A DNA stretch of 64,000 bases from a virus. The position numbers were made by a program, and so were the translations under genes. The notes under the pieces were generated by a model, which saw only the letters and a list, made by a program, of their open reading frames with translations, was not told the DNA's origin and ran no database searches. The DNA is taken from IMG/VR virus record IMGVR_UViG_3300043448_000837, positions 32,001 through 96,000 of that record, one strand, 5' to 3'. Of the stretch, positions 14,731-47,444 are shown one piece after another. How positions within the stretch are numbered: position 1 is the stretch's first letter; each line of letters starts with the position of its first letter.

Positions 14731-14796
14731 ACTATAGCGCGTTTTGCCCGTTCTGTAAAGGGTGCAAACCGCCCTGGCAGGTACGGTTAACCGCCC
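14731..14796 (-). repeat. Cassette/promoter repeat copy 1
   Basis: GGGCGGTTAACCGTAC..GGGCGGTTTG..TTTACA-N17-TATAGT; abuts TGA at 14797. Confidence 0.9.
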
Positions 14797-15129
14797 TCAG
14801 GCACTCTTGAGAACCAGGCGGTCGGCACTGGAGCCGACGCGAAAGGTGCCATTCCAGAGATAAGCACCCCAGAAGTAGGGGTCCTTGTCGGAAACATTCT
14901 GGAACTCGGCGGTAATCGAGCCGTACTGCTTTTGACGATCAACCTCAAACTCCAAGTCACGCAGGTTGCGAACGCCGAAGAACTCTTTCAGGTCTTGCAG
15001 TTTGCTGAAGTACAGATCGCCGACTTTGAACCCAACGAAACGGTTGGCATCGGTCAAGTCCGCACCTTTGCGAACGTATCCGGCTTTGATGACTTGGCCA
15101 GCGACAAGGTTGGAAACGGTTTTCTTCAT
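14797..15129 (-). CDS. Hypothetical cassette gene
   Basis: Exactly bounded by two repeat copies. Confidence 0.75.
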   Translation of the reverse strand: MKKTVSNLVAGQVIKAGYVRKGADLTDANRFVGFKVGDLYFSKLQDLKEFFGVRNLRDLEFEVDRQKQYGSITAEFQNVSDKDPYFWGAYLWNGTFRVGSSADRLVLKSA

Positions 15130-15135
15130 GTAATT

Positions 15136-15201
15136 ACTATAGCGCCTTTTGCCCGTTTTCGAAAGGGGGCAAACCGCCCTCCGAGGTACGGGAAACCGTA
15201 C
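15136..15201 (-). repeat. Cassette/promoter repeat copy 2
   Basis: TTTCGA-N17-TATAGT, ATG 6 nt downstream; abuts TAG at 15202. Confidence 0.9.
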
Positions 15202-15450
15202 CTACTCGGATATTGAAGCGGGGCGGCCCCAGCGGGCGAGCCGCAGGATGCCAGCGTCTCCATCGCCTGCACAGTGCTCAGACCAAAAAGCGATGATTTC
15301 CATTTCCGTCGGCCCCTGCGGCTCGGGCTGGGCCAGAGCGGCGTTGGCTTTAGCTACCAGCGCAGTTTCGTACCCTTCGTACAGGCTGGTGTGCCTGTGA
15401 AGTTCTTGGGTTAGCTCAGCGCACAGCGCACGGAAATTGGGTTCAGTCAT
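15202..15450 (-). CDS. Hypothetical protein, FRALC/QPEPQGP family
   Basis: Paralog of 15447..15752. Confidence 0.65.
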   Translation of the reverse strand: MTEPNFRALCAELTQELHRHTSLYEGYETALVAKANAALAQPEPQGPTEMEIIAFWSEHCAGDGDAGILRLARWGRPASISE

Positions 15451-15752
15451 TGTTGTTCTCCAGTAGTGGCGGGGCGGCCCCAGCGGGCGAGAACGGCGCG
15501 GGCAAAGTCCAACTCTTGTCTGAACTCTTCGGCAAGGAAACCATGGTAACAGGATGTTTCCACTCCGTACAAGCTCATTAGCTCTTCATCTGTTGGCATA
15601 GGCCCCTGCGGCTCGGGCTGGGCCAGGGCGGCGTCAACACGAACAGCAAGCGGTGACTGTTTGATGCGCTCGACTGGAATGCCGGAGTCGATGGCATCCA
15701 TCAGCTCTTGGCACAGCGCACGGAAGTCAGTTTTGGTTTCGTTCGTTTTCAT
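15447..15752 (-). CDS. Hypothetical protein, FRALC/QPEPQGP family
   Basis: Shares FRALC, QPEPQGP and ARWGRPA. Confidence 0.65.
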   Translation of the reverse strand: MKTNETKTDFRALCQELMDAIDSGIPVERIKQSPLAVRVDAALAQPEPQGPMPTDEELMSLYGVETSCYHGFLAEEFRQELDFARAVLARWGRPATTGEQQ

Positions 15753-15758
15753 GTTTTA

Positions 15759-15825
15759 ATCATAGCTCATTTTCGCCCCAGCGAAAAGGGGGCAAACCGC
15801 CCTCCGAGGTACGGTTTCCCGTACC
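15759..15825 (-). repeat. Cassette/promoter repeat copy 3
   Basis: -10 TATGAT, ATG 6 nt downstream. Confidence 0.85.
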
Positions 15826-15838
15826 TGCTTGGACTTTA

Positions 15839-16318
15839 CTACGTGAAAAGATATTCTTTCCACTCGGGAACAATGCTGCTGTTCAACGTTAGAAGAAAAC
15901 GACTGAACGGCGCGTGGGGTCTTCTGTTCAAAGGAACTCCCCACTCTTCTGGCGTTCTGTTGTCCTTTACGTTGTTGCAGGTGTAGCAGCACGCTACCAT
16001 GTTCTCCCAAGTATCTCCGCCTCCCCGCGACTGCGGCAAAACGTGGTCAATCGTAAGGTCACGATCAGAACCGCAATACTGACAAGTGAAACCGTCACGT
16101 TTTAGAATGAGGCTACGAGAAGGTTTCTTTGCGTTGATGCGCCGAATCGGAAGCCGCACGTATGTGAGCAAACGAATGACTTGCTCGGACAGAATCTGTG
16201 CTTTTTTCTTCAGCACGAGCACAATGGCACGTCGCCAGGAGCAGACGTTGAGAGGCTCATAGCTGGCGTTAAGTACGAGAATACTTCTGTCGATGGCTAG
16301 AGTAGTAGGCGATGACAT
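15839..16318 (-). CDS. HNH endonuclease (McrA-like)
   Basis: ILVLNASYEPL, RDGFTCQYCG, TIDHVLPQSRGG, CYTCNNVK. Confidence 0.9.
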   Translation of the reverse strand: MSSPTTLAIDRSILVLNASYEPLNVCSWRRAIVLVLKKKAQILSEQVIRLLTYVRLPIRRINAKKPSRSLILKRDGFTCQYCGSDRDLTIDHVLPQSRGGGDTWENMVACCYTCNNVKDNRTPEEWGVPLNRRPHAPFSRFLLTLNSSIVPEWKEYLFT

Positions 16319-16321: not shown

Positions 16322-16795
16322 TTAACAATCCCCGGTGTAGCAGCCGTCGTAAGGGTCGAAGCCTTGCTCAAGATCCAAGTCCCCTTCCTCCTCGTAGCTA
16401 GGATCCGTATCAATTATAACGTGACCCAGGTAAATCATGCCGTTCTCGTAGCTGCACTCGAACTCCTGAAGTTCTGCGGAGAACTCCAGTATGTGACCCA
16501 GGCCCCTTTCTACGACTTCAGAAAAGTCGGGGTCGCGAATATCGTCGACGCGAATCGCACCAATGGTGCCGGAATCCACCGAGTACTCATTTCCATACGA
16601 ATCCTCGTAGACACCGTCGCCGTAGGCGGTGCCAAACATGAAGAACTTACGACCGTCGGCCAGAATAAACTCGTGCGAGGAGTTGTCGAAAGGAACTAGG
16701 CTGCATACTTCGTCCCATGCGTCGTGCATCACGTAGCACAGATCGCCAATATAGTAACGGACGGGAAGAGAGTTGCTCATTTCGGTTTCGTTCAT
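16322..16795 (-). CDS. Hypothetical protein
   Basis: YYIGDLCYV...TAYGDG..VDSGTIG; leaderless start. Confidence 0.75.
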   Translation of the reverse strand: MNETEMSNSLPVRYYIGDLCYVMHDAWDEVCSLVPFDNSSHEFILADGRKFFMFGTAYGDGVYEDSYGNEYSVDSGTIGAIRVDDIRDPDFSEVVERGLGHILEFSAELQEFECSYENGMIYLGHVIIDTDPSYEEEGDLDLEQGFDPYDGCYTGDC

Positions 16796-16801
16796 GTAAG
16801 T

Positions 16802-16857
16802 ATTATAGGTCAGCTTGGGAGCCAGCGGTCAGAAAGGTAGGCGGTTTGAGAACCGGC
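16802..16857 (-). repeat. Divergent cassette/promoter repeat copy 4
   Basis: TATAAT with ATG 6 nt downstream; degenerate CGG boxes; abuts TAG at 16858. Confidence 0.55.
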
Positions 16858-17049
16858 CTACTCGGCTTCCTGCCAGGCGTTGATGGCGTCTCGGGCGATC
16901 TCGTCGTCGGTCATCTGGGCAGCGTCATAAGGCTGGTCGAGGATGTAGCGGACCTCGGCCTCAGCCGCGTAGCGGCAGTCCCAGCCGGCACCGTGCTCGG
17001 CCCAGGCGTCGACAATAGCCATGATCAGTTCGAATCGGTTCATTTCCAT
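16858..17049 (-). CDS. Hypothetical cassette gene
   Basis: Start MEMNRF 6 nt after TATGCT. Confidence 0.65.
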   Translation of the reverse strand: MEMNRFELIMAIVDAWAEHGAGWDCRYAAEAEVRYILDQPYDAAQMTDDEIARDAINAWQEAE

Positions 17050-17055
17050 GCTATA

Positions 17056-17121
17056 AGCATAGCTCATTTTGCCAGTTCTGCAAAGGGGGTAAACCGTCCT
17101 CCCAGGTACGGTTAACCGCCC
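17056..17121 (-). repeat. Cassette/promoter repeat copy 5
   Basis: Supplies the TAA stop of the kinase gene (..QGG*). Confidence 0.9.
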
Positions 17122-17864
17122 TGCGCCTCAGCGAGTAGGCGAGTCAGCAGGCGGTCTACCTCCGGCCACTGGGCGCTGGGCCGGTACTTGCGCAGGCGGA
17201 CCACGTGCGACATCTCAGCTGCCAGGGCCTGGGTCCACAAGGGTTCCCCCAGCCTTTGGCGAAGGTGGGCGCACAGAGGCGCAGGGTCGCCACCTGGGTG
17301 TGAGTTGAACAACCGGTGGTAATCGCTGTGCACAGACTGAAGTAATTTACCCAAGTCGAGCACGTAAGACTGGAACAAATTTTGCTTGAAGTTAGGGTCG
17401 ATCAGAACGATGCCCCCGTTATTTTCTACAATGATGTTTTCAAGCGTCAGATCTCCGTGTGAGAACGAGGATGGTAGTGGCTCAATTTCGTCGAGGATTT
17501 CGAAAGTTCGACGAACTATATCACTGTCCGCCAGAGCGACGTGCTCTGAGTGAAGACGATCTTTGTAAGAAACCCAGTCTGCATTTCGCGTTGCTGGGAC
17601 CGTTGACCACAGAAGAATCTGGTCTACCAACGTGTCAATCAGGCGAGTCGATTCAATCTGCGTGCCGCAAACTCCTTCGACAAACTCAATATCGTACTCG
17701 GAACTGGACACGCAAATGGTTTGAGGAAGTCGAATCCCTGGTGTCAAAGTGTACCGCGAGGCAGTACGAAACCAGTCGCACTGCTCAGCGGCATCCTTAC
17801 ACTTCTTTCGTATGAAATCCCCGGAGAAATCCAGGGTCGCACCACTACTTCCCTTCACGAACAA
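17112..17864 (-). CDS. APH/choline-kinase-family phosphotransferase
   Basis: HGDLTLENI, LIDPN, DLGKLLQS. Confidence 0.85.
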   Translation of the reverse strand: MFVKGSSGATLDFSGDFIRKKCKDAAEQCDWFRTASRYTLTPGIRLPQTICVSSSEYDIEFVEGVCGTQIESTRLIDTLVDQILLWSTVPATRNADWVSYKDRLHSEHVALADSDIVRRTFEILDEIEPLPSSFSHGDLTLENIIVENNGGIVLIDPNFKQNLFQSYVLDLGKLLQSVHSDYHRLFNSHPGGDPAPLCAHLRQRLGEPLWTQALAAEMSHVVRLRKYRPSAQWPEVDRLLTRLLAEAQGG

Positions 17865-18932: not shown

Positions 18933-18976
18933 AACATAGGTCGCGAGAGCTGCAAGTAAAGGGCGGAAACCCGCCC
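18933..18976 (-). repeat. Partial cassette/promoter repeat copy 6
   Basis: GGGCGGGTTTCCGCCC then TTTACT and TATGTT. Confidence 0.5.
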
Positions 18977-18982
18977 AGTTTC

Positions 18983-21890: not shown

Positions 21891-22132
21891 CAGTCGCGAG
21901 CGGAGTGGATGGACTCGTTGATCTTCGCGGCGTAGGCCGTGGGGCTCATGCCGGTGACGGCGGACCTCCACTCCAGGAAGGCCACCTCGGCCCGGTCGCA
22001 GAGGTCTTCGTACTTGGCGATGGCATGCGGTGCCCAGGGGCTGGCCATGGCACCCTGCTTGTGGTAGAAGGCCAGCTTGACCTGGGTGGCTTCTTCGTAG
22101 AGGGCTTTGAGTTGGGTTTGAACGTCTTTCAT
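21890..22132 (-). CDS. Hypothetical cassette gene
   Basis: Leaderless start after repeat. Confidence 0.65.
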   Translation of the reverse strand: MKDVQTQLKALYEEATQVKLAFYHKQGAMASPWAPHAIAKYEDLCDRAEVAFLEWRSAVTGMSPTAYAAKINESIHSARD

Positions 22133-22138
22133 GCTTTA

Positions 22139-22204
22139 ATTATGGCTCATTTTGTCGCGTTTGTAAAGGGGGCAAACCGCCCTCCCAGGTACGGTTAACC
22201 GCCC
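22139..22204 (-). repeat. Cassette/promoter repeat copy 8
   Basis: Abuts TGA at 22205; ATG 6 nt after -10. Confidence 0.9.
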
Positions 22205-22456
22205 TCACATCCACCAGCCGATCTCGCGATCGCCATTCATTTGCTCCAGCTGGTAATCGTGGAAGGTTTCGCAAACGTATTCAACAGTAGCGTTATCCGG
22301 CAGTTCGTCGCGGCAGATTACGTACACTTCGTTGTAAAGATTGTCAAAGGCTTCTTTGTCACCATCGTAACCGGCGTAGCAGCAATCGTTGAGAAGCTCC
22401 TTGTGAAGCTGAAAGCTGGCGGCGAGGGCTTTCTGGGAGAGGTCGGTTTTCTTCAT
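22205..22456 (-). CDS. Hypothetical cassette gene
   Basis: Exactly bounded by repeats. Confidence 0.7.
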   Translation of the reverse strand: MKKTDLSQKALAASFQLHKELLNDCCYAGYDGDKEAFDNLYNEVYVICRDELPDNATVEYVCETFHDYQLEQMNGDREIGWWM

Positions 22457-22462
22457 GTAATT

Positions 22463-22529
22463 ACTATAGCGCCTTTTGCCCGTTTTCGAAAGGGGGGCAA
22501 ACCGCCCTCCCAGGTACGGTTAACCGCCC
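22463..22529 (-). repeat. Cassette/promoter repeat copy 9
   Basis: Consensus copy; overlaps TAG at 22529. Confidence 0.92.
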
Positions 22530-22756
22530 TAGTCCAGCTTGGATTCAGGTTCGTTAAACTGGTCGAGCAATTCGGGGGCGTAATCTTCAGCCAGGTCCCA
22601 CAGATCCGTCCAATCTTGCCAAACTGTTTGCTCGTAGTGCAGATCCCAAACAATCTGACGAAGCTGCTCTAACGTCAACTGGGAGACCAATCCGTCTACG
22701 ATCGCGGAAACAACCTCTTCGCGATCTTCTTCAATCCACTCAGTAGGACGATTCAT
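22529..22756 (-). CDS. Hypothetical protein
   Basis: Coupled ORF ending at repeat. Confidence 0.65.
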   Translation of the reverse strand: MNRPTEWIEEDREEVVSAIVDGLVSQLTLEQLRQIVWDLHYEQTVWQDWTDLWDLAEDYAPELLDQFNEPESKLD

Positions 22757-24009: not shown

Positions 24010-24844
24010 GGTAGTTGCAAGAGGGGCAGTGGACGTTGTACTGGGGCGGATAAGATGTCAGCATGACACTTGGGCTCGAATCCCACAGTTCGTTTCCGCA
24101 AAGTGGGCACGCGATGCCATTCGGTGCGGGGGATCCCCACCGAGCTCGCTGAACTTCAAAGTTGTGCTCTTCCAGGGACTTGAGATTGTTGAGTTTGGTC
24201 ATGTCAACCTCCAACGTCTCCGCTCACAACGACGGGCTCCACATCGCCACAGAGGACCTCGACCTCAATTCGGCCCATGATACTCAGGACATGGTCTCTC
24301 ACCCGCTCTCTCGTTTCCTTTGTGAATCCCTCGTAGTTGGAAATCCTCAAACTCTTGTTGAGCGTGTCAGCGATCACCATCAAGTCACCGGCGGATAGTT
24401 TCATTGTTACTCCTCCCTCACAACTACAAAGTGGCGTTGCGCCTCTGCGGGCAACTGATCGTAAACTTTCTGCTCGTCTCGCAGGGACTTATTCCAGGCT
24501 TGCACCATCAGCAGGTAAATGCAGAGGGAGAGTTCATACGTGGTAATGTCAGGTTTGGGGCGATACTTGAAACTTCGCCCATCCTCAAGCGCCTCCTGCA
24601 GGGAGGTATCCCCAAAGAAGTGAGCGAAGAAGTTAGCGGTGGCGCGATCGGTGTCAGTCATTGCTATCAGTGTGAAGACGCCAGTTTACATCACGAGCGG
24701 TTGGAATCTTGAGAGCCATCCGCAGCGTGTTGTTTTCGTGAATCAGCAGCTTGACCATGTCGAGCGTTGTAACCTCGCACTCGGGAAACTGCTTGCCCAC
24801 TTCGTGAGCGATTCGCATGTATTCGGTTTTGTAGTCAAGTTCAA

Positions 24845-25201
24845 TCATTCGGGCAAAGCCTCCAGTGCGCGGCGGATGTTGGCAAGATCTTTCATCTGGT
24901 CACTGAAGAATTCTCCCGTTGCTACAAGGCGTTTGAGTCCCTCCAGTGCTACCTCCTTCAAGCTCGGTGGCCTTGGACGGCGATAGTTGTAGAACTCAAT
25001 CACATCTTCTTCCTCCCACCCAGCACACTGCTTGAGGTAATTTCCGCAAGCCAGTAGCTCCTGATCTGCGCCCCATTGGGCGGCACTGGCAGCCAAGTGC
25101 AGATCGCTTTGCGCTACTCGCACTGGCGTGCCTTCATGCCAGATCTCGCCAATCCATTTCTCTACGATCTCCGGCGGTGGGGTAAGTTTGGGGTCAGTCA
25201 C
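24845..25201 (-). CDS. Hypothetical protein, TPPP/QWGAD/PPSLKE family
   Basis: Paralog of 29787 and 40676 ORFs; GTG start. Confidence 0.65.
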   Translation of the reverse strand: MTDPKLTPPPEIVEKWIGEIWHEGTPVRVAQSDLHLAASAAQWGADQELLACGNYLKQCAGWEEEDVIEFYNYRRPRPPSLKEVALEGLKRLVATGEFFSDQMKDLANIRRALEALPE

Positions 25202-25377
25202 TACATGCCTCCTCTCGAAGTTCAGTTGTAATCCAATCAATCTGAGGACCAAACGCCTCCTCCAACCATATCGCCACTTCTCGAATAGCAGCGCGAGCTT
25301 CCGGTTGGCCAGTAGTTTTTGAACGTGCGTATTCAACGTAGATTGCGTGTTGAACCCGATTCACTAACGAGTCGTAG

Positions 25378-25986: not shown

Positions 25987-26382
25987 CTGCCTTGCTCCTG
26001 GTTTTGATTGTAATAGTAAGGAAAGAGTTCTCTCAGAATTGTGTCAACGGCGTTGTAGGTTTTACCTCCAATCTTGCAACTCTCAAGCTGGTAACGGCGA
26101 AGGAGTTGGTAAAGGGTACGGTACTCAGAGGGGGTCATAGTTTCTTTGTGCAGCGCACAGAAATTGGGCTCAGTCATTTCTTCTCCTTAAGCTTCAGGTA
26201 ATTATACTCCGTGGCGCACTGTTTGGGTTGTTCGGTGCAGTAGATGATTCCGGCGTTTCTGCCACGTTCGATGTTACCTTTCTCTGGCAGAGTTGCGCCG
26301 ATAGAAATTAACATTCCCGAAACCACAAGGACGATAAAGCATGTCATAAATCCGACAAACACTGATTCTCCTTCTGTTCTTA

Positions 26383-30131: not shown

Positions 30132-30384
30132 GTTGGTTAATTCAGTTGCCAGGAAAGGTGATCGTGAGCTCATCGCTCCAGAGAGCAGAACTTTCACAGC
30201 GAGACAGGTGCATCACGCAGCCTCCGCCAACCATTGTGAAGTCAGGGTCAAGTCGAACTAGGAAAGGTTGGTTGGAGTATTCAACTCGGCAGCAAAGGTA
30301 GTGACCCGGTGCGGTAGGTCTGTTGCGAGGTTTAAGGGTTAGGTTCGTTGTGAGGGGCACGGGGTCGTTTTCGTTCATGAATTA

Positions 30385-30450
30385 ACTATAGCGCCTTTTG
30401 CCCGTTTTCGAAAGGGGGCAAACCGCCCTCCCAGGTACGGTTAACCGCCC
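30385..30450 (-). repeat. Cassette/promoter repeat copy 11
   Basis: Consensus copy; overlaps TAG at 30450. Confidence 0.92.
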
Positions 30451-30578
30451 TACTCGTGATAACCGATAATCACGTATCCTTGCTTCCTCAGGTCGTCCAA
30501 AGCGTGTTTCCCCCAGGGAACCCATCGCCACTCAGTTTTTCCACCTGTAAGAAGCAAGTGAACGCACATGTACCTCAT
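30450..30578 (-). CDS. 42-aa hypothetical protein (not in ORF track)
   Basis: MRYMCVHLLLTGGKTEWRWVPWG...; fills the gap and ends at the repeat. Confidence 0.5.
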   Translation of the reverse strand: MRYMCVHLLLTGGKTEWRWVPWGKHALDDLRKQGYVIIGYHE

Positions 30579-30579
30579 C

Positions 30580-32860: not shown

Positions 32861-33427
32861 TTACGCAGCTTGGACTTTAGAATTTCTGTTGTCACGGTGA
32901 AGCTCCTCTTTACGAAGGATCATAGCCAAGGCAGTCGCGTATTCATCTCCACCGTACAGACCGATAAGATCCTGGAGGAATTCCTCCGCATCGATGAAGA
33001 ATCGCATTTGCGTCGAAGAGTTGGTTCGGCGGTTGATGATTGTCGGACAGTCATAGACTTCTCCGAGTTTTCTCGCCATTTCCTGCTGATCGGAACCGAG
33101 AACAATCGCGGCTTCCTTCCAGTAGGAAGATTCTACAGCTTTTGAGACTGCTTCGTACGGGCTCTTGGCTTTGTTAAAGTATACCCGATTCATGTCCAGT
33201 TTCGCTTCTCGGCATAGGTGCGTTAGAAGAAGCACACGAAGGTCCCAATCGTTGTTTTTCACTCCGTCGGACACGTAAACGTGGGCTTCATCGCCGTGGG
33301 CGAGCATCATTTGAATAAGCTCAATATGCCCCGAATGAGGTATATTCATCCGAGCAAAAGTTACGGTGCGCTCATAACGGATGGGTTGTTGTTTCAAGAT
33401 CGTCTTTTCTCTAACTATAGTAATCAT
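32861..33427 (-). CDS. HxGH cytidylyltransferase-like protein
   Basis: TFARMNIPHSGH, VLGSD, SSTQMR; start codon uncertain. Confidence 0.75.
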   Translation of the reverse strand: MITIVREKTILKQQPIRYERTVTFARMNIPHSGHIELIQMMLAHGDEAHVYVSDGVKNNDWDLRVLLLTHLCREAKLDMNRVYFNKAKSPYEAVSKAVESSYWKEAAIVLGSDQQEMARKLGEVYDCPTIINRRTNSSTQMRFFIDAEEFLQDLIGLYGGDEYATALAMILRKEELHRDNRNSKVQAA

Positions 33428-33488
33428 ACCGCGAAACGGTGTCTAAGTAAAGGCGGGTTTACCGTCTGTCTTGGGCGGTTAACCGCCC
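33423..33488 (-). repeat. Cassette/promoter repeat copy 13
   Basis: GGGCGGTTAACCGCCC..TTTACT..TATGAT. Confidence 0.75.
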
Positions 33489-34322
33489 CTTCACCCATCC
33501 TAAGGGTTCTTCACCAGGGATGAACATTTTTTCGACAACTTGCTTCAGGTTTTTGTACCACCTCATGCTCTTAGTTTTAGGTTCCACCCCAAACATAGGG
33601 TTATTGCTCCCGGCGACGGCCAAACTTTTCAGTTTACGGGTCTCCTCCAAGATAGGTTTTCTCCCGTTCCTCCACCCCTCGGGTAAATCGGAGTTTGGGG
33701 GTATCATTGTTTCTCGCTCACCATTGGTAATCCACACCCATTCATCAATCCTGAAGCAGTTTTCTCTCATTTTTTGGAGGGTCTCTTCTGAGGCTTTTTT
33801 GCCCTTCCTGCCTAGTCCGATTTTTCTTTTTCTCTCCTCCGAGTGGGGTCCTCGGATTTGCCCTCGATTTTTTGAGCCACCTGTCTTACCCATTTCGGAG
33901 TAAAATTCAAAAGATCGTTTCGGGAAGTTCGCTGTTCTGTTATGGTGGGCCTGCCACTTTACACGTAGTGTTTCAAACAACGGGGGAAGAACTTCCCTAG
34001 GCACCATAGCAAAGCATTTCCTGCCGGTAACTTCACTCTGGATAACACCGGCAATCCAATGCTGATAGGTTGTTAGTGACTGAGAGTTTAATGGAGTCAG
34101 TAAACCTCCCTCGCAGTCAGGGACTTCAATATGATGAATTTCTCTACCGTACCAATCCCAATCTTCTTCTGATAAGCGAAGGTTAGCAATGTGGCAATCG
34201 TACAAAAAGTCGCTGTAAATGTCTTCTACAGAACGCATGACATCAGAATAACTAACGTTATTATACCCGTGTCCGGTATGAGGTAAGTTAAAGTCTGTGC
34301 TAGCCGCCCTCCTCACTGTCAA
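33459..34322 (-). CDS. Free-standing homing endonuclease (HNH-like with NUMOD3 repeats)
   Basis: IHHI..P..GG...N..LT..QH; HSEERKRKI, SEETLQKM, WITNG, NPMFG. Confidence 0.75.
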   Translation of the reverse strand: MTVRRAASTDFNLPHTGHGYNNVSYSDVMRSVEDIYSDFLYDCHIANLRLSEEDWDWYGREIHHIEVPDCEGGLLTPLNSQSLTTYQHWIAGVIQSEVTGRKCFAMVPREVLPPLFETLRVKWQAHHNRTANFPKRSFEFYSEMGKTGGSKNRGQIRGPHSEERKRKIGLGRKGKKASEETLQKMRENCFRIDEWVWITNGERETMIPPNSDLPEGWRNGRKPILEETRKLKSLAVAGSNNPMFGVEPKTKSMRWYKNLKQVVEKMFIPGEEPLGWVKGRLTAQDRR

Positions 34323-35806: not shown

Positions 35807-35807
35807 A

Positions 35808-35889
35808 AGAGGTGTCTGTGTGTATGAGAGTATTATAAGGCAAAACACACTCCATCACAAGGAGGAGTGTGCCAGTTTAGGGAGTGTCC
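35808..35889 (-). repeat. Second repeat family copy C
   Basis: GGACACTCCCTAAACTGGCACA...GCCTTATAAT..CTCATACACACAG. Confidence 0.8.
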
Positions 35890-37160: not shown

Positions 37161-37763
37161 TCATTTAAAACTAATCACAGTGGGCATCGGAGCGTTGTAG
37201 GCAAGCTCCTTCAGGTTGAGACGCTTCGCGTCGTGAGCGTAGTGGAAGAACCCGCTGTTGGTTCCTTGCCACATGCGGGTAGGATTGCAAGCATGCTTAT
37301 CAGCAAGGTTGCCAGACTGAGCACGCATAGCTTTCAGGGCGCGAGCACACTCGTCGTATGACAGATTCAGGTCGGTTTCAACACGCCACAGCAGGCGGTA
37401 GGATTGGTTGCGGAAACGACCGTCGTTGGAAAAGGTGAAGTAACCGAGCCAAGGCTTCATGTCGAAGTAGTTAAACCACTGGACCATATCGTTACCGGAA
37501 ACTTCGCAAACGTCAAAGTCGAGACCGACAAGCGTTTGAGTGCGCCAGCAGAGCTTTTCAAACTGGAGTTCCATCAGATCGCGACCGTTCAGGAGACCAC
37601 CGTAAAAAGGGCAACCTTTCTCGGTCACAAGGCGAATGAATTCGTGCTCGTGCAGCGCCTCCCAGGGACGCTGAATCATACGCTCGCGGAGCTTACCGTA
37701 CTCCTGGAGAGTTTCGGGCTTGGACTGACGGGGATCGCCGAGGTGGCAGAGGACTTTGTTCAT
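37161..37763 (-). CDS. Possible primase-polymerase-like N-terminal domain protein
   Basis: LDFD, YFTFS...YRL, D..C.NPTR. Confidence 0.5.
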   Translation of the reverse strand: MNKVLCHLGDPRQSKPETLQEYGKLRERMIQRPWEALHEHEFIRLVTEKGCPFYGGLLNGRDLMELQFEKLCWRTQTLVGLDFDVCEVSGNDMVQWFNYFDMKPWLGYFTFSNDGRFRNQSYRLLWRVETDLNLSYDECARALKAMRAQSGNLADKHACNPTRMWQGTNSGFFHYAHDAKRLNLKELAYNAPMPTVISFK

Positions 37764-37769
37764 GATATA

Positions 37770-37836
37770 ACTATAGCGTGGTTTGGCTGTTTTGGAAAGG
37801 GGGGCAAACCGCCCTCCCAGGTACGGTTAACCGCCC
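37770..37836 (-). repeat. Cassette/promoter repeat copy 14
   Basis: Abuts TGA at 37837; ATG 6 nt after TATAGT. Confidence 0.9.
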
Positions 37837-38640
37837 TCACGGCAAAGTAAGTTCAAGAAGTGGGTTAAAGTCTGGATTAAGATCGCTGGAGTTTACCCCG
37901 GTGTAGTAACCACGCGGATTACATATTACACGACAATCGCCGATGTTGTAATCGAATGAGTTATGTGTGTGTCCGTGCGACCAAACTTTAATTTGAGGGT
38001 GCGCCAAGATGTAATCGTTCATGTCGGTAACATACGCCCCGTTCGCAATACCTGCAGAACGATATTTCGGGTGAACGGACTGGTAAGAAGGGGCATGATG
38101 TGTCATTACCCATATTTTTCTCATCTTCATCTCGTTGAGTTTCTCTGTCAGAAATTTGCGAGATCTTTTATGAAAAGACAAAGTATCGTCCGGGGTCATC
38201 TTTCGGTATTTTGATGTTATTCGAACGGTCTTATAGTCGTTCATGCACTGAGCCGCCTCCATCATTTCCAGTGCATTCTCGTTGCGAAAATCTGTCCAAA
38301 ACGTTGAACCAATGAACATCCAGTCTTCGACCTCAGCGATGTTGTCTTCCAGCAACTCAATACCTTTGGGAAGGTTATCGCGAAGAGCAACCCAGGTTCC
38401 CTCGTAGTTGTATCCGTAGTGCTCGTGATTTCCAGCGATGTAAAGAACCCGATCAAAGTTTTTCAGACACTTATCCAGAAAGTCAAGATAGACTTTCCGA
38501 AGGGGTCCGTTTGTTTTCAGGTGCTTTGCGCACAGAATGTCTCCCCCGAGAACCAGAACATCGCCGGTGCCGAGGTCAGGAACTTCCCCACCACTACAAA
38601 ACTCGAGGTGCAGATCGGATACGACTCTTACTGTTGTCAT
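37837..38640 (-). CDS. Metallophosphoesterase
   Basis: SDLHLE, GGD, GNHEHY, THHAPS, HGHTH, NPRGY. Confidence 0.9.
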   Translation of the reverse strand: MTTVRVVSDLHLEFCSGGEVPDLGTGDVLVLGGDILCAKHLKTNGPLRKVYLDFLDKCLKNFDRVLYIAGNHEHYGYNYEGTWVALRDNLPKGIELLEDNIAEVEDWMFIGSTFWTDFRNENALEMMEAAQCMNDYKTVRITSKYRKMTPDDTLSFHKRSRKFLTEKLNEMKMRKIWVMTHHAPSYQSVHPKYRSAGIANGAYVTDMNDYILAHPQIKVWSHGHTHNSFDYNIGDCRVICNPRGYYTGVNSSDLNPDFNPLLELTLP

Positions 38641-38768
38641 TTCACTAGCTCAAATTTCTTCTTCAGTGCATTGAGAGATTGTTTTCGTGCGCGAATTTGC
38701 CCTTTGCACAAACCTTTCGTCTGCTTACGCTTTCCGGAGTTATGCAGCCAGTTCGGTACTCTTTTCAT
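38637..38768 (-). CDS. 43-aa basic protein (not in ORF track)
   Basis: MKRVPNWLHNSGKRKQ...; leaderless start and ATGA coupling. Confidence 0.65.
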   Translation of the reverse strand: MKRVPNWLHNSGKRKQTKGLCKGQIRARKQSLNALKKKFELVK

Positions 38769-38774
38769 GCTTCA

Positions 38775-38843
38775 AGCATAGCTCAAAAGGCGGTCCCCGT
38801 AAAGCCGGGAAACCGCCCTAAGAAGGTAGGGGAAACCCTACCC
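38775..38843 (-). repeat. Cassette/promoter repeat copy 15
   Basis: TTTACG..TATGCT with ATG 6 nt downstream. Confidence 0.75.
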
Positions 38844-38894
38844 GTCGAAAACAGCCTGCAGCGGGCCTCAACCGGTGGCTAGGCCCACCGTCCC

Positions 38895-39192: not shown

Positions 39193-39278
39193 CGGAGAGA
39201 ACAGGACTCGAACCTGCGAAGGGTTTTATCCCCCGACCGCTCTCGAAACGGCGTCCTCGACCGAACCGGACTCTCTCC
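39193..39278 (-). tRNA. tRNA-Ser(CGA)
   Basis: Cloverleaf, loop TTCGAGA, long variable arm. Confidence 0.85.
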
Positions 39279-39282
39279 AAGG

Positions 39283-39364
39283 TGTCCCCTGCCGGACTTG
39301 AACCGGCACGACTACTGTCAGCGCATTTTAAGTGCGCCGCGCCTACCAATTACGCCAAGGGGAC
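39283..39364 (-). tRNA. tRNA-Leu(TAA)
   Basis: Loop CTTAAAA. Confidence 0.9.
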
Positions 39365-39368
39365 AAGG

Positions 39369-39441
39369 TGCTCAGTGCGAGGATCGAACTCGCCTGTATC
39401 CGATTATGAGTCGGGTGCTTTCACCAGATAGCTAACTGAGC
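39369..39441 (-). tRNA. tRNA-Met or Ile2 (CAT)
   Basis: Loop CTCATAA. Confidence 0.85.
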
Positions 39442-39998: not shown

Positions 39999-40675
39999 GC
40001 TTTTCTCCGTTGAGCGTTTTCAGGGTCGCAATTTTTCGCGTATTCCATTGGAGTAACCATGAGCCATTCCCCCGAGTTTTCTCCAGAAATTAGAGGGAGA
40101 GTTTCGTCGTGGGTTAAATTCTCGTATTCGGATCCGTCTCGCATTCTGACTCGATAAAGAGGTTCACCCATCAGTCCCAATACGAATGAAGTGTGCGAAG
40201 ATGCGAGAGTATTATACCGTCCTCGACAGAGCGGTAAACTGAGGGCAGCTTTCCGTGTTGCTTGTAGTATGCCAGCTCAGAAACAACGGCACGAGTCACG
40301 GTGCAATCGGCAACCCACTCACGAAACCAGAAACAATCGAACTTTTCAATATACCGCCAAGTGGGATCTTCGTGGGTCCACGCTCTGCCATAACCATCGT
40401 ACTTACTAGAAAGACTCCAGCCCAGATCGTCGCAAATCCAGGCATCGTAACGCTCAGGGTCGTCGATAGTGAGGACCTGTTTATACTCTTCGGATCCGCC
40501 CTTTGCTTGACACCAGACGAAGTCTTCGCCGGGATCGTTTGAACGACTGCATTTGAAAACGCAGTTGACTATCATGTAGGGGACATTGGGCCACGGTTTA
40601 GGCGACTCCGAGGTACGAAAGTCCACCCGAAGGTTTGTGATTTGCAAAGCCATGATTTATCTCTCAGAAGAATAA

Positions 40676-41026
40676 TCAGTCATCGAGTTGCTCCAGTGCG
40701 CGGCGGATAAGTGCGAGCTCTTCAGGGCCAAACGTGACATAGGCTCCGTCTGTTCCCGCTGGTTTTGCCAATTCCAACGCTTGTTCCTTCAAGCTCGGCG
40801 GCTTGGGACGGCGGGCGGCGCGGAGGGCAGGGATGGCCATGCCGTCTTCGCCCCAATAGCCCATGCGCTTCATCCATTCAATGACGGCATCCAGCTCCTG
40901 GTCGGCACCCCATTGGGCGGCTTTTCTGGCAACGTAGTGTACTACCGATTTCTTTTTGTTTGAAGCTTCGTCCATCCACTGGTGCAGCAAGTTTACCGGT
41001 GGTGGGGTGATGTTGTAGTCAGTCAT
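40676..41026 (-). CDS. Hypothetical protein, TPPP/QWGAD/PPSLKE family
   Basis: Paralog family. Confidence 0.65.
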   Translation of the reverse strand: MTDYNITPPPVNLLHQWMDEASNKKKSVVHYVARKAAQWGADQELDAVIEWMKRMGYWGEDGMAIPALRAARRPKPPSLKEQALELAKPAGTDGAYVTFGPEELALIRRALEQLDD

Positions 41027-44278: not shown

Positions 44279-44419
44279 TCACAGGTACTTGAGCTCCAGG
44301 GCTTGAATGATCGGCTCAATCTCACGAGCAGTGTAAGCAGTGGCGCTGTAAACACCGTCAACGTAAATGTCGTATCGGGGGCCGAGGTGGGTACGGCGAA
44401 CCTTGGTAGTGATCTTCAT
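44279..44419 (-). CDS. 46-aa protein (not in ORF track)
   Basis: MKITTKVRRTHLGPRYDIYVDG...; leaderless start. Confidence 0.65.
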   Translation of the reverse strand: MKITTKVRRTHLGPRYDIYVDGVYSATAYTAREIEPIIQALELKYL

Positions 44420-44425
44420 GTTATA

Positions 44426-44491
44426 ACTATAGCTGGTTTTGGCACGGGAGTAAAGGGGGTAAACCGCCCTGGCGTGGGCGGGTAACCGCCC
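44426..44491 (-). repeat. Cassette/promoter repeat copy 17
   Basis: TTTACT-N17-TATAGT; TGA at 44493. Confidence 0.88.
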
Positions 44492-45281
44492 CTCAGGCGT
44501 CCCCGAACTCTTTCTTCAGGCGTTCGTACTCCTGGCGACGACTGTTTCGAATGAACTCTTCTCTTTTGAGACGAGCGTTAAATTCCTCGTCATTTTCCTC
44601 CCTTTGCTTGGTTACCGTAAAGATTGCGGTAACGCAGTCGTAATATCCTCGCTCGGCTTCCAGTTCCACTTGCGTGAAACCTTGTTCCATCGCTTCCGTC
44701 AAATTTGCAATAGCTGTTTGGATGGAACAATAGTCGATGTCGAGTTGACGAGTCTCGGTAATTTGTTGACGTTTTTGTGCAGTCATTGTTTTGTAATTTT
44801 AGGTTTTAGTAAGGGCTTGTTTTTGAGCCTCGATCCAGCGGCTCTCAAAAAACTCTCTCATCGCGTCGCGAAAGGCGAGGATGGCTTCTTGCTGAGCTTT
44901 ACTGTGCAGAGAGTCTGCCAAGTAAGTCGCGTGGCGATGAACCAAGCTCTCGAAGTCTCTCGCCCCGGCTTCGTACGCCTTTGCGTAGAACTCTTTCAGG
45001 TCGGATGTCAGTGAATCGATGGCGTCAGTCATTGTTGTCCCAGTCAGCAACTGTGGTATAGGTTTCGATAAGAACAAGTGTTTGTCCTAACAATCTGTGG
45101 TTTTGATAGTCTGCAAACGCTTCTTCGCGAGTCGGATAACCATACGTGTTGAAGACATATTCACCCCAACTGGTTTGGGGGTCTAGCAGATGCCCCTCTT
45201 TAGAGAGAAGCTTCCAGCAGTAGCTGATTTCGACTTTTGTTTTCATTTTGCGGGGTTCATAAACAACAAGTGGCATTGTGA

Positions 45282-45995
45282 TCAAGCTCGAATTTCAACG
45301 AGTTCCTTCCGGTGGCAGTCCCAGAGGACCAGGGCAGGCGACTCTTCGCAGAACCACGACCGCTTGACCCCACCGCAACCGGCATCGAGCACCAAAGAAT
45401 TTTCGGTTGAACAAACCACGTGGTAGTGTCCGGCGACGCGCACCCAGGGCCGCTCGCTGGCGTGCTCCCACCAGAATACACGACCTTTCCCTTCTTTACT
45501 GTTCGGTCCGTACATCATCAGGCTCTTCGCCTTCTTCGGCACGTCAAATACCATGTGAAACAGCGGGTATTCAGGCACTTCGAGCCAGGAAGGGAAGTAT
45601 GCGTGTGAGCATCTGTACTCCTGGTTTGAATCATCGCGAAAACAGAAGCCGTAAGGCATCGTTTCCAGCCACTGGCCCACCTCCGACAGCGGAATCTCAG
45701 CCGCCGCGAAATCCTCAATCGTGCGAGCCAACTCAGGCGAAACGTGAACGTTATTTCCGCGAATGTATCGCTCCAGCTTGTCCTGGTGGTTGGAACGCAG
45801 AACAATCGCACCCAGTTCTTTCTGAGCTTGCTTCAGCAGCTGGTACACACCAGCGGAATCGCTGAAGTCGCAGCGGGAGTCAAACACATCGCCCAGAATT
45901 ACGGGAATCAGAGCGTTGGTTTGGCAGTATGCGAGCGCCTCCCACAGAGGGCGATACTGCGAGTGAATATCGCCGATCAGAGCGTAGCTACGCAT
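45282..45995 (-). CDS. Metallophosphoesterase (PNKP/Ap4A-hydrolase-like)
   Basis: Start MRSYALIGDIH; GDVFDSR, SNHQDKL, HAY, GHYH, LDAGC. Confidence 0.85.
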   Translation of the reverse strand: MRSYALIGDIHSQYRPLWEALAYCQTNALIPVILGDVFDSRCDFSDSAGVYQLLKQAQKELGAIVLRSNHQDKLERYIRGNNVHVSPELARTIEDFAAAEIPLSEVGQWLETMPYGFCFRDDSNQEYRCSHAYFPSWLEVPEYPLFHMVFDVPKKAKSLMMYGPNSKEGKGRVFWWEHASERPWVRVAGHYHVVCSTENSLVLDAGCGGVKRSWFCEESPALVLWDCHRKELVEIRA

Positions 45996-46213
45996 GTCTA
46001 GCCCACCTCCACTTCTTTGATCTTGTAGTAATCGTATTCTCTCAAGTCGCCATCGCAATCTACGAAAGAACCGTCTTTCAACGATTCCCCATAGTTCTTC
46101 GCATCTTCCTTATTCATGAAGACCGACACCGAGTATTCTACATCCTCACCCTCGTAGTCCATGCCACCGCAAACCACGTAAACCACCATCCCTTTCTTCA
46201 TTTCCATACCTTT

Positions 46214-46280
46214 AGTATAGCTCATCCTGCCGGTTTTCGAAAGGGGGGCAAACCGCCCTCCCAGGTACGGTTAACCGCCC
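46214..46280 (-). repeat. Cassette/promoter repeat copy 18
   Basis: TTTCGA..TATACT; abuts TGA at 46281. Confidence 0.9.
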
Positions 46281-47372
46281 TCACAGGCCCAGCAAGGCGT
46301 CCAGCTGCTTGGGCTTCATTTTCCCCACGAATTCCATGAAGTTCGCGTACTTGCCGGCACGAATGCCGAACATTGCACCGGAAACATTCGGGTGGTTTTC
46401 GAGGACAATGCCCGCAAATTCCTTCTGGGAGTAACCTTCGTACAGTCGCACGAAGCCCTCAACCATGAACCCGATATCGCCGATACGATCGCGCAAAGCG
46501 TTGAACTCTGCGGAATAGTCGGGGAAGTGCAGCAGGAACTCGTCCAGATCGTCGTTCAGGTACAGCTCGGAGAAGTCAGGATCCCCGTTACCGCGAACGC
46601 GATGCAACTGAACGTAAACGTCGGACTTGACCTTGATTCGGTTACCGTTCGCGTCGCAAACGATGAAGCCTTCGTGGTCGGCACCGCGAGCGTTGACTGC
46701 GTCAACGATGTTGTCAGCACCGAAATTGAAGGACTCAGCCACCCAGAATACGCGGGAGAAATCACCCAGCGGCAACTCTACGAAATCGTTCGCACGATCC
46801 CGCACTGCCAGCAGCCGTAACATCGGCTCGTCGTACTTCACAACGATCCGGTTCTCGGCAGCGCACAACTCAAACACGTAGCAGTAATTCGGGTTCAGAT
46901 CGAAAGCGTTATAGCGCATGTACCGGAAGGTATCCCAGAACAGCTCTTCAAACGACATACCGGAATCACCAACGCTGCCAGCACCGCCGACAGAACCGGA
47001 GGTAGAAACAACCCACTGCACACCGTTCCAGAACAGTTTAATCAGCGAGCCATCATACTTCTCGTATACGTTCGCGGAGGACCAATCAATCTCATCAGCT
47101 TCAGCTTCGCCCAGGTTGAAGAAACGGTCGAAAGCGTAAGCAACCAGGCGAAAGTACGGCGAATGATCACCGTCGTTATCCACTCGCTCTACGACGGCAC
47201 CACGGCAAGCACGTACGATCGGGTTACCCTTGTCGGTACCAATTACTCCGTACTTCAGGTTGAACAAACCAGGGAAACGGTCGTCCGTAGAAACGCGGAT
47301 GTCCAGGTCCGCCAGGGGACCCAGCCCATAGTCGTTCAGCCAGTTGATCAGGTTGTTTCGCAAGTTATCCAT
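46281..47372 (-). CDS. RNA ligase, T4 Rnl1-like
   Basis: CRG, RFFN, EKYDGSL, FEL..ENRIVV, EGFIV, KVKS; single-gene cassette. Confidence 0.9.
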   Translation of the reverse strand: MDNLRNNLINWLNDYGLGPLADLDIRVSTDDRFPGLFNLKYGVIGTDKGNPIVRACRGAVVERVDNDGDHSPYFRLVAYAFDRFFNLGEAEADEIDWSSANVYEKYDGSLIKLFWNGVQWVVSTSGSVGGAGSVGDSGMSFEELFWDTFRYMRYNAFDLNPNYCYVFELCAAENRIVVKYDEPMLRLLAVRDRANDFVELPLGDFSRVFWVAESFNFGADNIVDAVNARGADHEGFIVCDANGNRIKVKSDVYVQLHRVRGNGDPDFSELYLNDDLDEFLLHFPDYSAEFNALRDRIGDIGFMVEGFVRLYEGYSQKEFAGIVLENHPNVSGAMFGIRAGKYANFMEFVGKMKPKQLDALLGL

Positions 47373-47378
47373 GCTATA

Positions 47379-47444
47379 AGCATAGCGCTTTTTGGCCCAG
47401 GGGTAAAGGGGGTAAACCGCCCTCCCAGGTACGGTTAACCGTCC
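47379..47444 (-). repeat. Cassette/promoter repeat copy 19
   Basis: Supplies TAA stop (..DG*); ATG 6 nt after TATGCT. Confidence 0.9.

Follow-up and report, generated by a model that had tools for sequence, protein, structure and literature searches.

A PeSL-like, putative composite terminator/promoter repeat of an uncultured cyanophage-like genome is also a probable hotspot of homologous recombination

Introduction

The T4-type phages possess intergenic motifs called promoter-early stem-loops (PeSL) (Arbiol et al. 2010, PMC2839356; Comeau et al. 2014, PMC4122927). Like these, the repeat described here is an intergenic composite: it combines the stop codon of the preceding gene with a stem-loop and an early promoter of the sigma-70-like kind. 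Both types of motif cluster in hyper-variable regions populated by small ORFan genes. In each case close relatives differ at the motifs, and one chimeric motif is found where a relative has two flanking a gene; neither system involves a dedicated recombinase. However, the upstream region of PeSL is AT-rich and the stem-loops are variously placed relative to the -35 and -10 boxes, whereas here this region is GC-rich, stands at a fixed position and contains a near-invariant 15-nt box. Furthermore, in PeSL a Shine-Dalgarno sequence precedes the start codon, whereas the repeat here has neither a leader nor a Shine-Dalgarno sequence because its ATG lies 6 nt past the -10 box. The promoter and terminator activities and the mini-circles of PeSL were shown by experiment, whereas the repeat here is described from its sequence. 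Finally, PeSL phages are T4-type, whereas this phage is not T4-like as judged by its nearest named relative (Aokuangvirus).

Leaderless expression of phage genes is known from lambda cI transcribed from PRM, many actinobacteriophage genes and the middle and late genes of Thermus phage phiYS40. In those genes the start codon follows the -10 box by 6-7 nt, so that the transcript starts with AUG, as is predicted here. In contrast, the start codon here belongs to a repeated mobile unit and opens the first gene of about 14 early units. In a full-text literature search we found no report of leaderless expression in cyanophages, and the "leaderless" matches that we examined were citations of a gene finder.

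Integrons also resemble this locus in that arrays of mostly single, unrelated genes in the same orientation are separated by structured repeats (attC). However, integron cassettes are promoterless and are recombined by the tyrosine recombinase IntI at a fixed point in the folded attC.

An earlier note on the 64,000-nt stretch analyzed here (the window) drew both the PeSL and the attC analogies and proposed that cassettes are gained and lost by recombination at the repeat.

Results

The record examined is a 114-kb metagenome assembly and is incomplete (CheckV 51%). The relatives compared with it likewise all come from metagenome assembly, a process that can join sequences wrongly at repeats.

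The 37-nt consensus given in the earlier note had nine matches at three or fewer mismatches, six of them exact and all on the minus strand. The same search of 100 shuffled sequences gave no match, and thus none is expected by chance. An nhmmer profile trained on 18 copies detected 16 full-length copies at 14715-47447 (E 1e-5 to 1e-26), two or three degenerate copies at 14.7-47.4 kb (including 16785-16862 and 18949-18977) and a few fragments. It also recovered the four further copies that had been reported at 55.8-56.5 kb (55790-56490) and one copy beyond the window (genome 99118-99199). All copies are on the minus strand. The repeat family is real and has about 21 copies in the early region of this genome. 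The count of 19 in the earlier note is fair when partial units are included, but slightly exceeds the number of full units. The reported length of about 66 bp has to be corrected: the conserved unit is about 90 bp (about 87-95 nt) because it includes the start codon and the gene's first three to four codons. The copies in the window, detected with the nhmmer profile, are given below; "leaderless" marks a start codon predicted to lack a leader.

14715..14801, minus strand: repeat copy (78 bits); TGA of ORF 14797-15129, hairpin, -35/-10; GTG 7 nt past the -10 box, conserved ATG of the next gene at 14705
15119..15205, minus strand: repeat copy; perfect 7-bp first hairpin; leaderless ATG 15129, 110-aa ORF
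15741..15827, minus strand: repeat copy; first hairpin with inverted loop (GAAA); leaderless ATG 15752, 101-aa ORF
16785..16862, minus strand: degenerate copy (E 0.05); -10 TATAAT, 6 nt, ATG 16795, 157-aa ORF
17038..17123, minus strand: repeat copy; loop TAA ends ORF 17112-17864; leaderless ATG 17049, 63 aa
18949..18977, minus strand: partial, ancestral-type copy (E 0.19); one perfect 6-bp GC hairpin, then the -35 box; leader before the gene that starts at 18911
22122..22208, minus strand: repeat copy; TGA of ORF 22205-22456; leaderless ATG 22132, 80 aa
22446..22533, minus strand: repeat copy; TAG of ORF 22529-22756; leaderless ATG 22456, 83 aa
27286..27373, minus strand: repeat copy; leaderless ATG 27296, 92 aa
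30367..30454, minus strand: repeat copy; TAG of ORF 30450-30590; leaderless ATG 30378, 78 aa
32597..32684, minus strand: repeat copy; loop TAA ends ORF 32671-32895; leaderless ATG 32608, 152-aa AAA_33 kinase
33416..33492, minus strand: weak copy (21 bits, and promoter scan); hairpins and TTTACT-17-TATGAT upstream of ORF 32861-33427
37752..37841, minus strand: repeat copy; TGA of Metallophos ORF 37837-38640; leaderless ATG 37763, 200 aa
38757..38844, minus strand: variant copy (50 bits); -35 box in the hairpin loop, then TTTT; leaderless ATG 38768, 43 aa
43755..43841, minus strand: repeat copy with leader; -10 TATAAT, 24-nt leader, ATG 43738, DUF932 gene
44411..44495, minus strand: repeat copy; perfect 6-bp first hairpin; leaderless ATG 44419, 46 aa
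46198..46285, minus strand: repeat copy; TGA of the RNA ligase gene; leaderless ATG 46207, 69 aa
47363..47447, minus strand: repeat copy; loop TAA ends ORF 47435-47650; leaderless ATG 47372, 363-aa RNA ligase
55790..55876, minus strand: repeat copy without ATG (62 bits); predicted promoter inside tRNA operon
55953..56039, minus strand: repeat copy without ATG (60 bits); predicted promoter inside tRNA operon
56254..56334, minus strand: repeat copy without ATG (58 bits); predicted promoter inside tRNA operon
56408..56490, minus strand: repeat copy without ATG (60 bits); predicted promoter inside tRNA operon

The stop codons that the earlier note had assigned to 13 copies are all at the correct coordinates: in ten copies a TGA or TAG directly adjoins the first G-run, and in three a TAA lies in the hairpin loop. 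The genes described there as bounded exactly by two copies (14797-15129, 22205-22456 and the RNA ligase gene 46281-47372; Pfam RNA_lig_T4_1, E 7e-19) are indeed so bounded.

Conservation of the unit across the phage clade was observed directly. The 64 related IMG/VR loci contain 206 copies in total; this genome and these loci together give 141 unique copies, of which 125 could be parsed. The 15-nt core is retained in distant contigs of up to 277 kb. The motif did not occur above chance level in 185,579 prokaryote genomes.

The anatomy of the unit was read directly from 18 aligned copies. On the minus strand, the order is stop codon, GC-rich hairpin(s), -35 box, 17 nt, -10 box, 6 nt and ATG. 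The TTT directly 3' of the hairpin doubles as the start of the -35 box, and the -10 box is TATAGT-like, so the promoter is predicted to be of the sigma-70 type. The 17-nt spacer is found in 122 of the 125 parseable copies and the 6-nt spacing between the -10 box and ATG in 115; within the window, ATG is exactly 6 nt past the -10 box in 14 of 16 full copies, a spacing that the earlier note had not pointed out. All 13 ATGs at this position in the window open ORFs (43-363 codons), and the random chance of 43 open codons is about 0.13 for each. Counted from the ATG at 32608, the AAA_33 domain starts at residue 8. Because the ATG is exactly 6 nt past the -10 box, a sigma-70-type polymerase should initiate at the A of ATG. 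Thus, the ATG is at the predicted first transcript base and leaderless mRNAs are predicted.

The 62 nt ending at the -35 box have a minimum free energy of -19 to -30 kcal/mol. They can form one long imperfect hairpin across both G-rich boxes or, if the first arm is self-complementary, two hairpins; the commonest sequence form gives the single long hairpin, with the two boxes paired. The arm pairs of the first hairpin occur in four sequence versions, each fully complementary, and the column pair 12-21 alternates between C-G (114 copies) and G-C (8 copies). While this first hairpin varies freely, the second G-rich box (15 nt) is near-invariant across very divergent phages; it resembles a protein-binding site more than a freely covarying hairpin. 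Only two copies pass a scan for classical intrinsic terminators because the T-run is only 3 nt long.

The nearest named phage is Synechococcus phage S-CBWM1 (GyrA, 52% identity). A hairpin-promoter motif of this phage was found in L068 (about six copies seen in 20 kb); we know of no published description of it. As in the window, a GC hairpin directly precedes the -35 box, which is TTTACA-like, and about 17 nt separate this from a -10 box of TAAAGT or TAAGCT; the motif stands upstream of small early genes beside topoisomerase and polymerase genes. However, the S-CBWM1 motif mostly has a single perfect hairpin and leaders of about 25-45 nt, whereas in the clade of the window the box is double and the start codon is at +1. 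The copy at 18949-18977, the top terminator-like match in the scan, has the same design as S-CBWM1.

We compared the early region with about 20 close relatives (86-97% identity) and counted 40 distinct indel or replacement events. Both ends lie in repeats in 12 events, one end in three and neither in 25; the last group includes microhomology at paralogous-gene ends, a homing-endonuclease gene and a low-GC island. Polymorphism is moderately enriched at repeat junctions (12/18 versus 29/77 at other junctions; Fisher, odds ratio 3.3, one-sided p=0.025). Because repeat junctions are the only roomy intergenic sites, tolerance of change could inflate this count. Most events were found in contigs from at least two samples. 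The entire unit at the 14715..14801 junction is missing in four relatives (alignment A2), and relatives L016, L019 and L031 have an additional cassette of 220-320 nt at 22446..22533. The copy at 16785..16862 borders a cassette replaced in L005 and L041, that at 30367..30454 borders a replacement in L006 on one side, and that at 46198..46285 is a boundary of a replacement (288 versus about 1250 nt) in L038 and L050. The copy at 38757..38844 borders a hotspot with at least five alleles, and that at 33416..33492 adjoins a NUMOD3 endonuclease ORF missing from six relatives.

At three polymorphic cassette sites, single chimeric repeats were directly observed. In L005 and L041, a single copy joins the left half of the 15741 copy of the window (the upstream partner) to the right half of the 15119 copy (the downstream partner), and 15210-15785 is deleted by the crossover (alignment A1). 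Conversely, the window's 44411 copy is a chimera of two copies flanking an extra 389-nt cassette in L038 (alignment A3), and its 37752 copy is a chimera of two copies flanking an extra cassette in L061 and L038 (alignment A4). Such a single chimeric repeat is the signature of a crossover between two copies. At these junctions the overlap between alignments is 40-65 nt, and the crossover lies at the 5' edge, in the middle core or between the boxes in the three resolved events. In the hairpin part, orthologous copies are 95.5% identical and paralogous copies 83.8%; therefore, there is no genome-wide homogenization.

Thus, gene order across the repeats is not constant among relatives: cassettes are lost, gained and replaced with junctions inside repeats. 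The proposal that breakpoints map to repeats, and that cassettes are gained and lost by recombination there, is partly borne out: by the chimeras and by the 15 of the 40 events that touch a repeat, but not by the 25 events elsewhere.

No integrase, resolvase, RecA, ERF or RecT was found in the 114-kb record, and neither Phage_integrase nor Resolvase was matched.

Discussion

The repeat is best read as a PeSL-like composite terminator/promoter family that is also a homologous-recombination hotspot; it is not integron-like. We consider it likely that the repeat serves as a portable early-gene expression unit whose copies also recombine homologously and thereby move genes. The PeSL analogy holds for the composite stem-loop and sigma-70-like promoter, the hyper-variable early region and the junctions inside repeats. 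Promoter activity, the transcript start at ATG, terminator function and the recombination enzymes are what we infer from the sequence. On the minus strand, the repeat would provide the stop codon of the upstream gene; the strong GC-rich stem-loop that follows may attenuate, terminate or stabilize the upstream transcript, and the host sigma-70-type polymerase would then start at the A of ATG, giving a leaderless mRNA. About 20 copies in the same orientation, near-identical over 40-90 nt, separate non-essential genes. General homologous recombination between copies could therefore delete, insert or swap the intervening genes, whether inside a single genome or among co-infecting relatives. A moved gene would arrive with stop, promoter and translation start ready in place. 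Relative to the known PeSL kind, the GC-rich and leaderless design and the Aokuangvirus-like cyanophage lineage are new.

The structured repeats in one orientation that bound cassettes, together with the incompleteness of the record, outside which a recombinase gene could sit, might suggest a site-specific, attC-like recombination site served by a dedicated enzyme encoded elsewhere. This is extremely improbable, and we rejected an integron-like system: every cassette has its own predicted promoter, the crossover position differs among the three resolved events, other indels rely on unrelated microhomologies, and neither a tyrosine nor a serine recombinase was found in the 114-kb record. Mis-joins at repeats during metagenome assembly are a very unlikely source of the cassette polymorphisms, even though only assembled UViGs were compared and the repeats have up to 37-60 identical bases in common. 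The junctions recur across samples (for example L005/L041, L027/L057 and L016/L019/L031), and most extra cassettes have no homologue in this genome. Typical final assembly k-mers would also be longer than the identical stretches of the repeats, which counts against artefacts.

It is rather unlikely that the repeat is only a promoter/terminator family marking operon boundaries and does not itself promote recombination, with indels gathering there because no other sites are non-coding and tolerant of change. The 25 events outside repeats, the modest site-level enrichment, the conservation of orthologous copies to the same degree as their flanks, and the overlap or tight packing of most other gene junctions would all fit such a family. 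However, tolerance alone would not make chimeric copies, and the exact left/right chimeras, with the crossover inside the shared core and alignment overlaps of 40-65 nt, argue for recombination between copies. A possible but less favoured reading is that the chief role of the invariant 15-nt G-rich/C-rich box next to the -35 box is to bind a transcription factor of the host or the phage, as an operator or activator site co-regulating all early units; stem-loop potential would then be secondary, and recombination at the repeats would be compatible with it. The near-invariance of the box in the 141 unique copies and very distant contigs beside a freely variable first hairpin, the paucity of classical terminators, and the same 8-nt word occurring twice, 22 nt apart, in the commonest form are consistent with such a site. 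On the other hand, no candidate binding protein was found, the two boxes pair with each other in that commonest form, and both S-CBWM1 and the copy at 18949-18977 have a perfect hairpin of different sequence at the same position.

A minus-strand unit that joins a stop codon, hairpins and a predicted promoter

The earlier note had described a repeat of about 66 bp in 19 copies plus 4. Its 37-nt consensus gave 9 matches at 3 or fewer mismatches (6 of them exact), and 0 in shuffled sequences. Using a profile of 18 aligned copies, we found 16 full copies at 14715-47447 and 2 degenerate copies, all on the minus strand, and 1 minus-strand copy beyond the window. Thus, the existence of the repeat was confirmed. 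The four further copies, at 55790-56490 (-), were also recovered by the profile; they are located inside the tRNA operon and do not possess the ATG. A minus-strand chain was used as the gene model. The stop codons that had been reported in contact with the repeat were right at 13 of 13 coordinates, and three genes, one of which encodes an Rnl1-type RNA ligase, are each bounded by two copies as claimed. The parts of the unit (about 87-95 nt) are listed below; individual copies are named by their left coordinate.

Parts of the repeat unit, in order
Part 1 (-): TGA or TAG against the first G-run, or TAA within the first loop
Part 2 (-): first palindromic element
Part 3 (-): about 5 variable bases
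Part 4 (-): 15-nt box GGGCGGTTTRCCCCC, nearly invariant
Part 5 (-): TTT opening the -35 hexamer (TTTACA, TTTCGA and similar)
Part 6 (-): 17-nt spacer
Part 7 (-): -10 hexamer (TATAGT, TATGCT, TATGAT or CATAAT)
Part 8 (-): 6 nt, then ATG, then A-rich codons

We also checked whether the unit shuts every reading frame, and dropped this view because most copies close only two.

Predicted leaderless start

In 14 of 16 full copies, ATG or GTG is present at a fixed distance past the -10 box. The 13 ATGs at this position open ORFs of 43-363 codons, including an AAA_33 kinase whose domain begins at residue 8. Small downstream ORFs mostly have no Pfam match (9/10). Among 125 parseable unique copies, the arrangement of TTTNNN, a 17-nt spacer and a TATAGT-like box is kept in 122, and the spacing of -10 box, 6 nt and ATG in 115. 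The 43755 copy deviates and has a 24-nt leader. From their sequences, the -35 and -10 boxes are predicted to act as a promoter. Because base -1 is a pyrimidine and the A of the ATG is the seventh base past the -10 box, the 5′ end of the transcript would be expected at this A, and the mRNA would be leaderless. A Shine-Dalgarno sequence has no room, since the ATG lies only 6 nt past the -10 box.

At 38757-38844 (-), a variant unit carries its -35 box within the loop of a strong hairpin that is followed by TTTT. This variant is kept in at least 8 relatives and is predicted to drive a leaderless ORF of 43 aa, which lies just upstream of three tRNA genes (Ser, Leu and Met; 39193-39441).

The stem-loop and the 15-nt box

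When the 62 nt ending at the -35 box were folded, the minimum free energies were -19 to -30 kcal/mol. Copies with a self-complementary first arm form two hairpins. In the commonest version, the opening bases of the 15-nt box recur in the first arm, and both boxes pair as one long imperfect hairpin. RNAalifold on all 141 copies gave a consensus of just 2 bp, because these two alternative architectures coexist; therefore, pairs were counted under two explicit models. The first element occurs with four distinct arm pairs, every one fully complementary, and column pair 12-21 alternates between C-G and G-C. Given these four complementary versions and the C-G/G-C switch, a stem is under selection.

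A scan for classical terminators (a GC-rich hairpin with at least 5 T in 8 nt) recovered only the copies at 32646-32658 and 15790-15802 and the partial copy at 18961-18976. The T-run after the hairpin is just TTT, and hence few copies are recovered. By analogy with the promoter-early stem-loop (PeSL) cassettes of T4-type phages, the hairpin may nevertheless serve in termination or attenuation. The 15-nt box shows hardly any variation among copies and may be a protein-binding site. An NtcA-type site (GTA-N8-TAC) in the first hairpin was considered by eye and rejected, as the two halves are spaced by 10 nt and the 5′ GTA is missing from most copies. Rfam contains no family matching the repeat, and only tRNAs were recovered by this search.

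Gains and losses of cassettes in close relatives

We compared the window with about 20 related loci of 86-97% identity, all of which are metagenome assemblies. Distinct indels or replacements of at least 60 nt at 13.5-47.7 kb were taken from chained alignments, and contact with a repeat was defined as 45 nt or less. In these 34 kb there were 40 distinct events, of which 12 contact repeats at both ends, 3 at one end and 25 at neither. Breakpoints lie at repeats in 27 of 80 cases, as compared with 19% of gene junctions that carry a repeat (p=0.0013). Counted by site, polymorphism was seen at 12 of 18 junctions with a repeat and at 29 of 77 without one (one-sided Fisher p=0.025; odds ratio 3.3). 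Thus, the proposal that breakpoints map to repeats holds for 15 of the 40 events, whereas the remaining 25 occurred elsewhere. Although real, this enrichment is moderate, since the early region is plastic throughout. Most junctions were found again in contigs from different samples. Since most of the extra cassettes of the relatives have no homologue in this genome, the differences are true gains or losses.

Chimeric copies at the junctions

Base-level alignments gave the decisive evidence and resolved three crossovers. In L005 and L041 (related IMG/VR loci), the segment 15210-15785 is missing and one repeat is left at the site; the left half of this repeat matches the 15741 copy of the window and the right half the 15119 copy. 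The 44411 copy of the window consists of the upstream flank of one copy of locus L038 and the body of the next, and a 389-nt cassette separates those two copies in L038. The 37752 copy is a chimera of two copies of locus L061 that flank an extra small cassette; this cassette is also present in L038, there behind a different upstream gene. At a fourth junction, the 14715 unit is wholly missing from four relatives, in which the two genes adjoin.

Of the three crossovers, one lies at the 5′ edge, one in the core and one between the boxes. Because the position varies between events, exchange at the repeats fits homologous rather than site-specific recombination. The note had seen no recombinase in the window, and this extends to the 114-kb record, which may be incomplete: neither a tyrosine integrase nor a serine resolvase was found there, nor were RecA, ERF or RecT. 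A FEN-type 5′-3′ exonuclease is encoded in the record. The enzymes behind the recombination we can only infer.

Concerted evolution, in which paralogous copies would be closer than orthologous ones, was not seen globally. Conservation of orthologous copies equals that of their flanks, and paralogues resemble each other less; hence there is no global homogenisation. Only a small number of orthologues show patchy replacement of the hairpin part: the 43755 copy, for instance, is 84% identical to those of L038 and L046 (another relative), with flanks at 98-99%.

Comparison with PeSLs and integrons

The repeats had been likened both to PeSLs and to the attC sites of integrons. PeSLs are characterised by a sigma-70-like promoter, a stem-loop and the stop codon of the upstream gene; they occur among ORFans in hyperplastic regions, and where relatives differ by indels, the motifs are chimeric (PMC2839356, PMC4122927). 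At the sequence level, the unit has sigma-70-like boxes, a stable stem-loop and a fused upstream stop codon. It is intergenic in a hyperplastic region upstream of ORFans, and indels and replacements of close relatives map to it, with chimeric copies at the junctions. In contrast, the stretch upstream of the -35 box is AT-rich in PeSLs and GC-rich here, and the start codon is preceded by a Shine-Dalgarno sequence in PeSLs but not in the unit. Moreover, PeSL phages are T4-like myoviruses, whereas the nearest named phage here is S-CBWM1, of the genus Aokuangvirus. The integron comparison fares differently. An adjacent IntI would be expected, whereas the 114-kb record (possibly incomplete) has no PF00589 match; integron cassettes are promoterless, whereas each unit here has its own predicted promoter; and the crossover point of attC is fixed, unlike that of the three resolved crossovers. 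Thus, the PeSL analogy is largely right and the integron analogy is wrong. The distinctive features are the leaderless start, as predicted, and a clade-wide invariant box. In the T4-like cyanophage S-PM2, PeSLs were judged too sparse to account for the acquisition of genes (PMC4503421).

Distribution, lineage and likely host

The parent record is linear (114,040 bp; CheckV completeness estimate, 51%), and 32 tRNA genes are present in the window. Megablast of 20 kb against deposited phages gave zero nucleotide matches. A GyrA-like protein is 52% identical to its homologue in the Synechococcus phage S-CBWM1, and both genomes share the layout of a tRNA block, many small early genes, and then topoisomerase and polymerase. 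The phage encodes an SLH+OprB porin, whose closest Atlas clusters are cyanobacterial iron-uptake porins. The host is therefore likely a cyanobacterium.

An exact-pattern scan of IMG/VR gave 67 loci, and the profile found 206 copies in 64 of them. S-CBWM1 shares the hairpin/-35/-10 design, with leaders of 25-45 nt. In very distant contigs, which reach 277 kb, the box and promoter persist, with leaders in some and leaderless starts in others. On these grounds, the composite hairpin/promoter design is ancestral, and the predicted start codon at +1 is a trait of the window's clade. An origin of the motif in host genomes was considered and rejected: among 185,579 prokaryote genomes, the promoter-length pattern had 0 matches and the 19-nt core just 6 scattered ones.

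The densest array seen belongs to a more distant relative (L003:5184-13386 and L012:27-5839), in which about 15 units are spaced 200-600 bp apart in 8 kb. All first hairpins there are perfect and almost each small gene has its own unit.

Implications for early gene expression

One reading, which seems to us improbable, goes beyond a PeSL analogue: the unit would define a dedicated early regulon, with leaderless translation and an invariant factor-binding box of 15 nt common to over 20 transcription units. The conservation of the box in a wide, mostly undescribed clade of phages from aquatic habitats, with contigs reaching 277 kb, would then point to a clade-wide regulatory code. If this reading were true, early genes would be expressed via a translation route apart from the normal mRNAs of the host, usable for example while the phage alters ribosomes or initiation factors, and any captured ORF could be expressed without evolving a ribosome-binding site. 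In the part of the cyanophage full-text literature that was covered, "leaderless" occurs only within citations of a gene finder.

Because of the leaderless design, a mobile unit would bring all that is needed for expressing a newly acquired ORF, and the early region may be regarded as a natural plug-and-play expression array. The finding extends the PeSL idea, according to which the regulatory repeats of a phage serve at the same time as recombination sites for shuffling accessory genes, beyond T4-type phages to a poorly known cyanophage lineage; the evidence stems from natural populations sampled in many metagenomes, not from a single isolate pair. For picocyanobacterial genetics, the unit is a candidate promoter/terminator part of compact size. 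For gene callers, a rule for this clade would be that the first gene of each unit begins 6 nt past the -10 box.

Events away from the repeats and other variable genes

A family of small paralogous genes (24842-30200 and 40673-41026) has conserved ends of 35-40 nt (repeat families D10 and D14-D16). The junctions of two deletions in relatives, 26415-26623 and 40686-41016, lie within these identical ends. The paralogue ends are a second substrate for homology-driven shuffling. A NUMOD3-motif ORF (287 aa, 33459-34322 (-)), probably a homing endonuclease gene, is missing from six relatives; at its site, these carry 73-233 nt together with a full repeat copy. An HNH endonuclease ORF is present at 15839-16318.

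The most indel-rich stretch of the region is a low-GC island at 34300-37200 (43% GC versus about 51%) with very small ORFs; the main repeat takes part in none of its events. The island has a repeat type of its own (34985-35070 and 35242-35327), with TATAAT and a 25-nt leader containing an AGGA motif, and an ORF at 35379-35828 that is made up of a 15-bp tandem repeat in about 30 copies.

Besides cyanobacterial families named "iron uptake porin", the SLH/OprB protein (498 aa, 47935-49431 (-)) has a mostly viral cluster among its nearest Atlas neighbours; at its site, loci L050 and L052 hold a different, shorter segment. Within the tRNA region, a 166-aa ORF (50829-51329 (-)) is cleanly deleted in L029, L050 and L052. 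A homologue in L039:448-1369 (47-77% amino acid identity) lies at another position, that of the tRNA cluster at 39.1 kb, and the ORF may be a mobile gene. At 30580-32608 (-), one unit comprises genes for the FEN-type exonuclease, a Metallophos phosphoesterase and the AAA_33 (polynucleotide-kinase-like) kinase, and the RNA ligase gene (46281-47372 (-)) is a single-gene cassette. These four proteins are a possible RNA-repair set, similar in logic to T4 Pnkp/Rnl1 tRNA repair and here encoded beside the 32-tRNA set.
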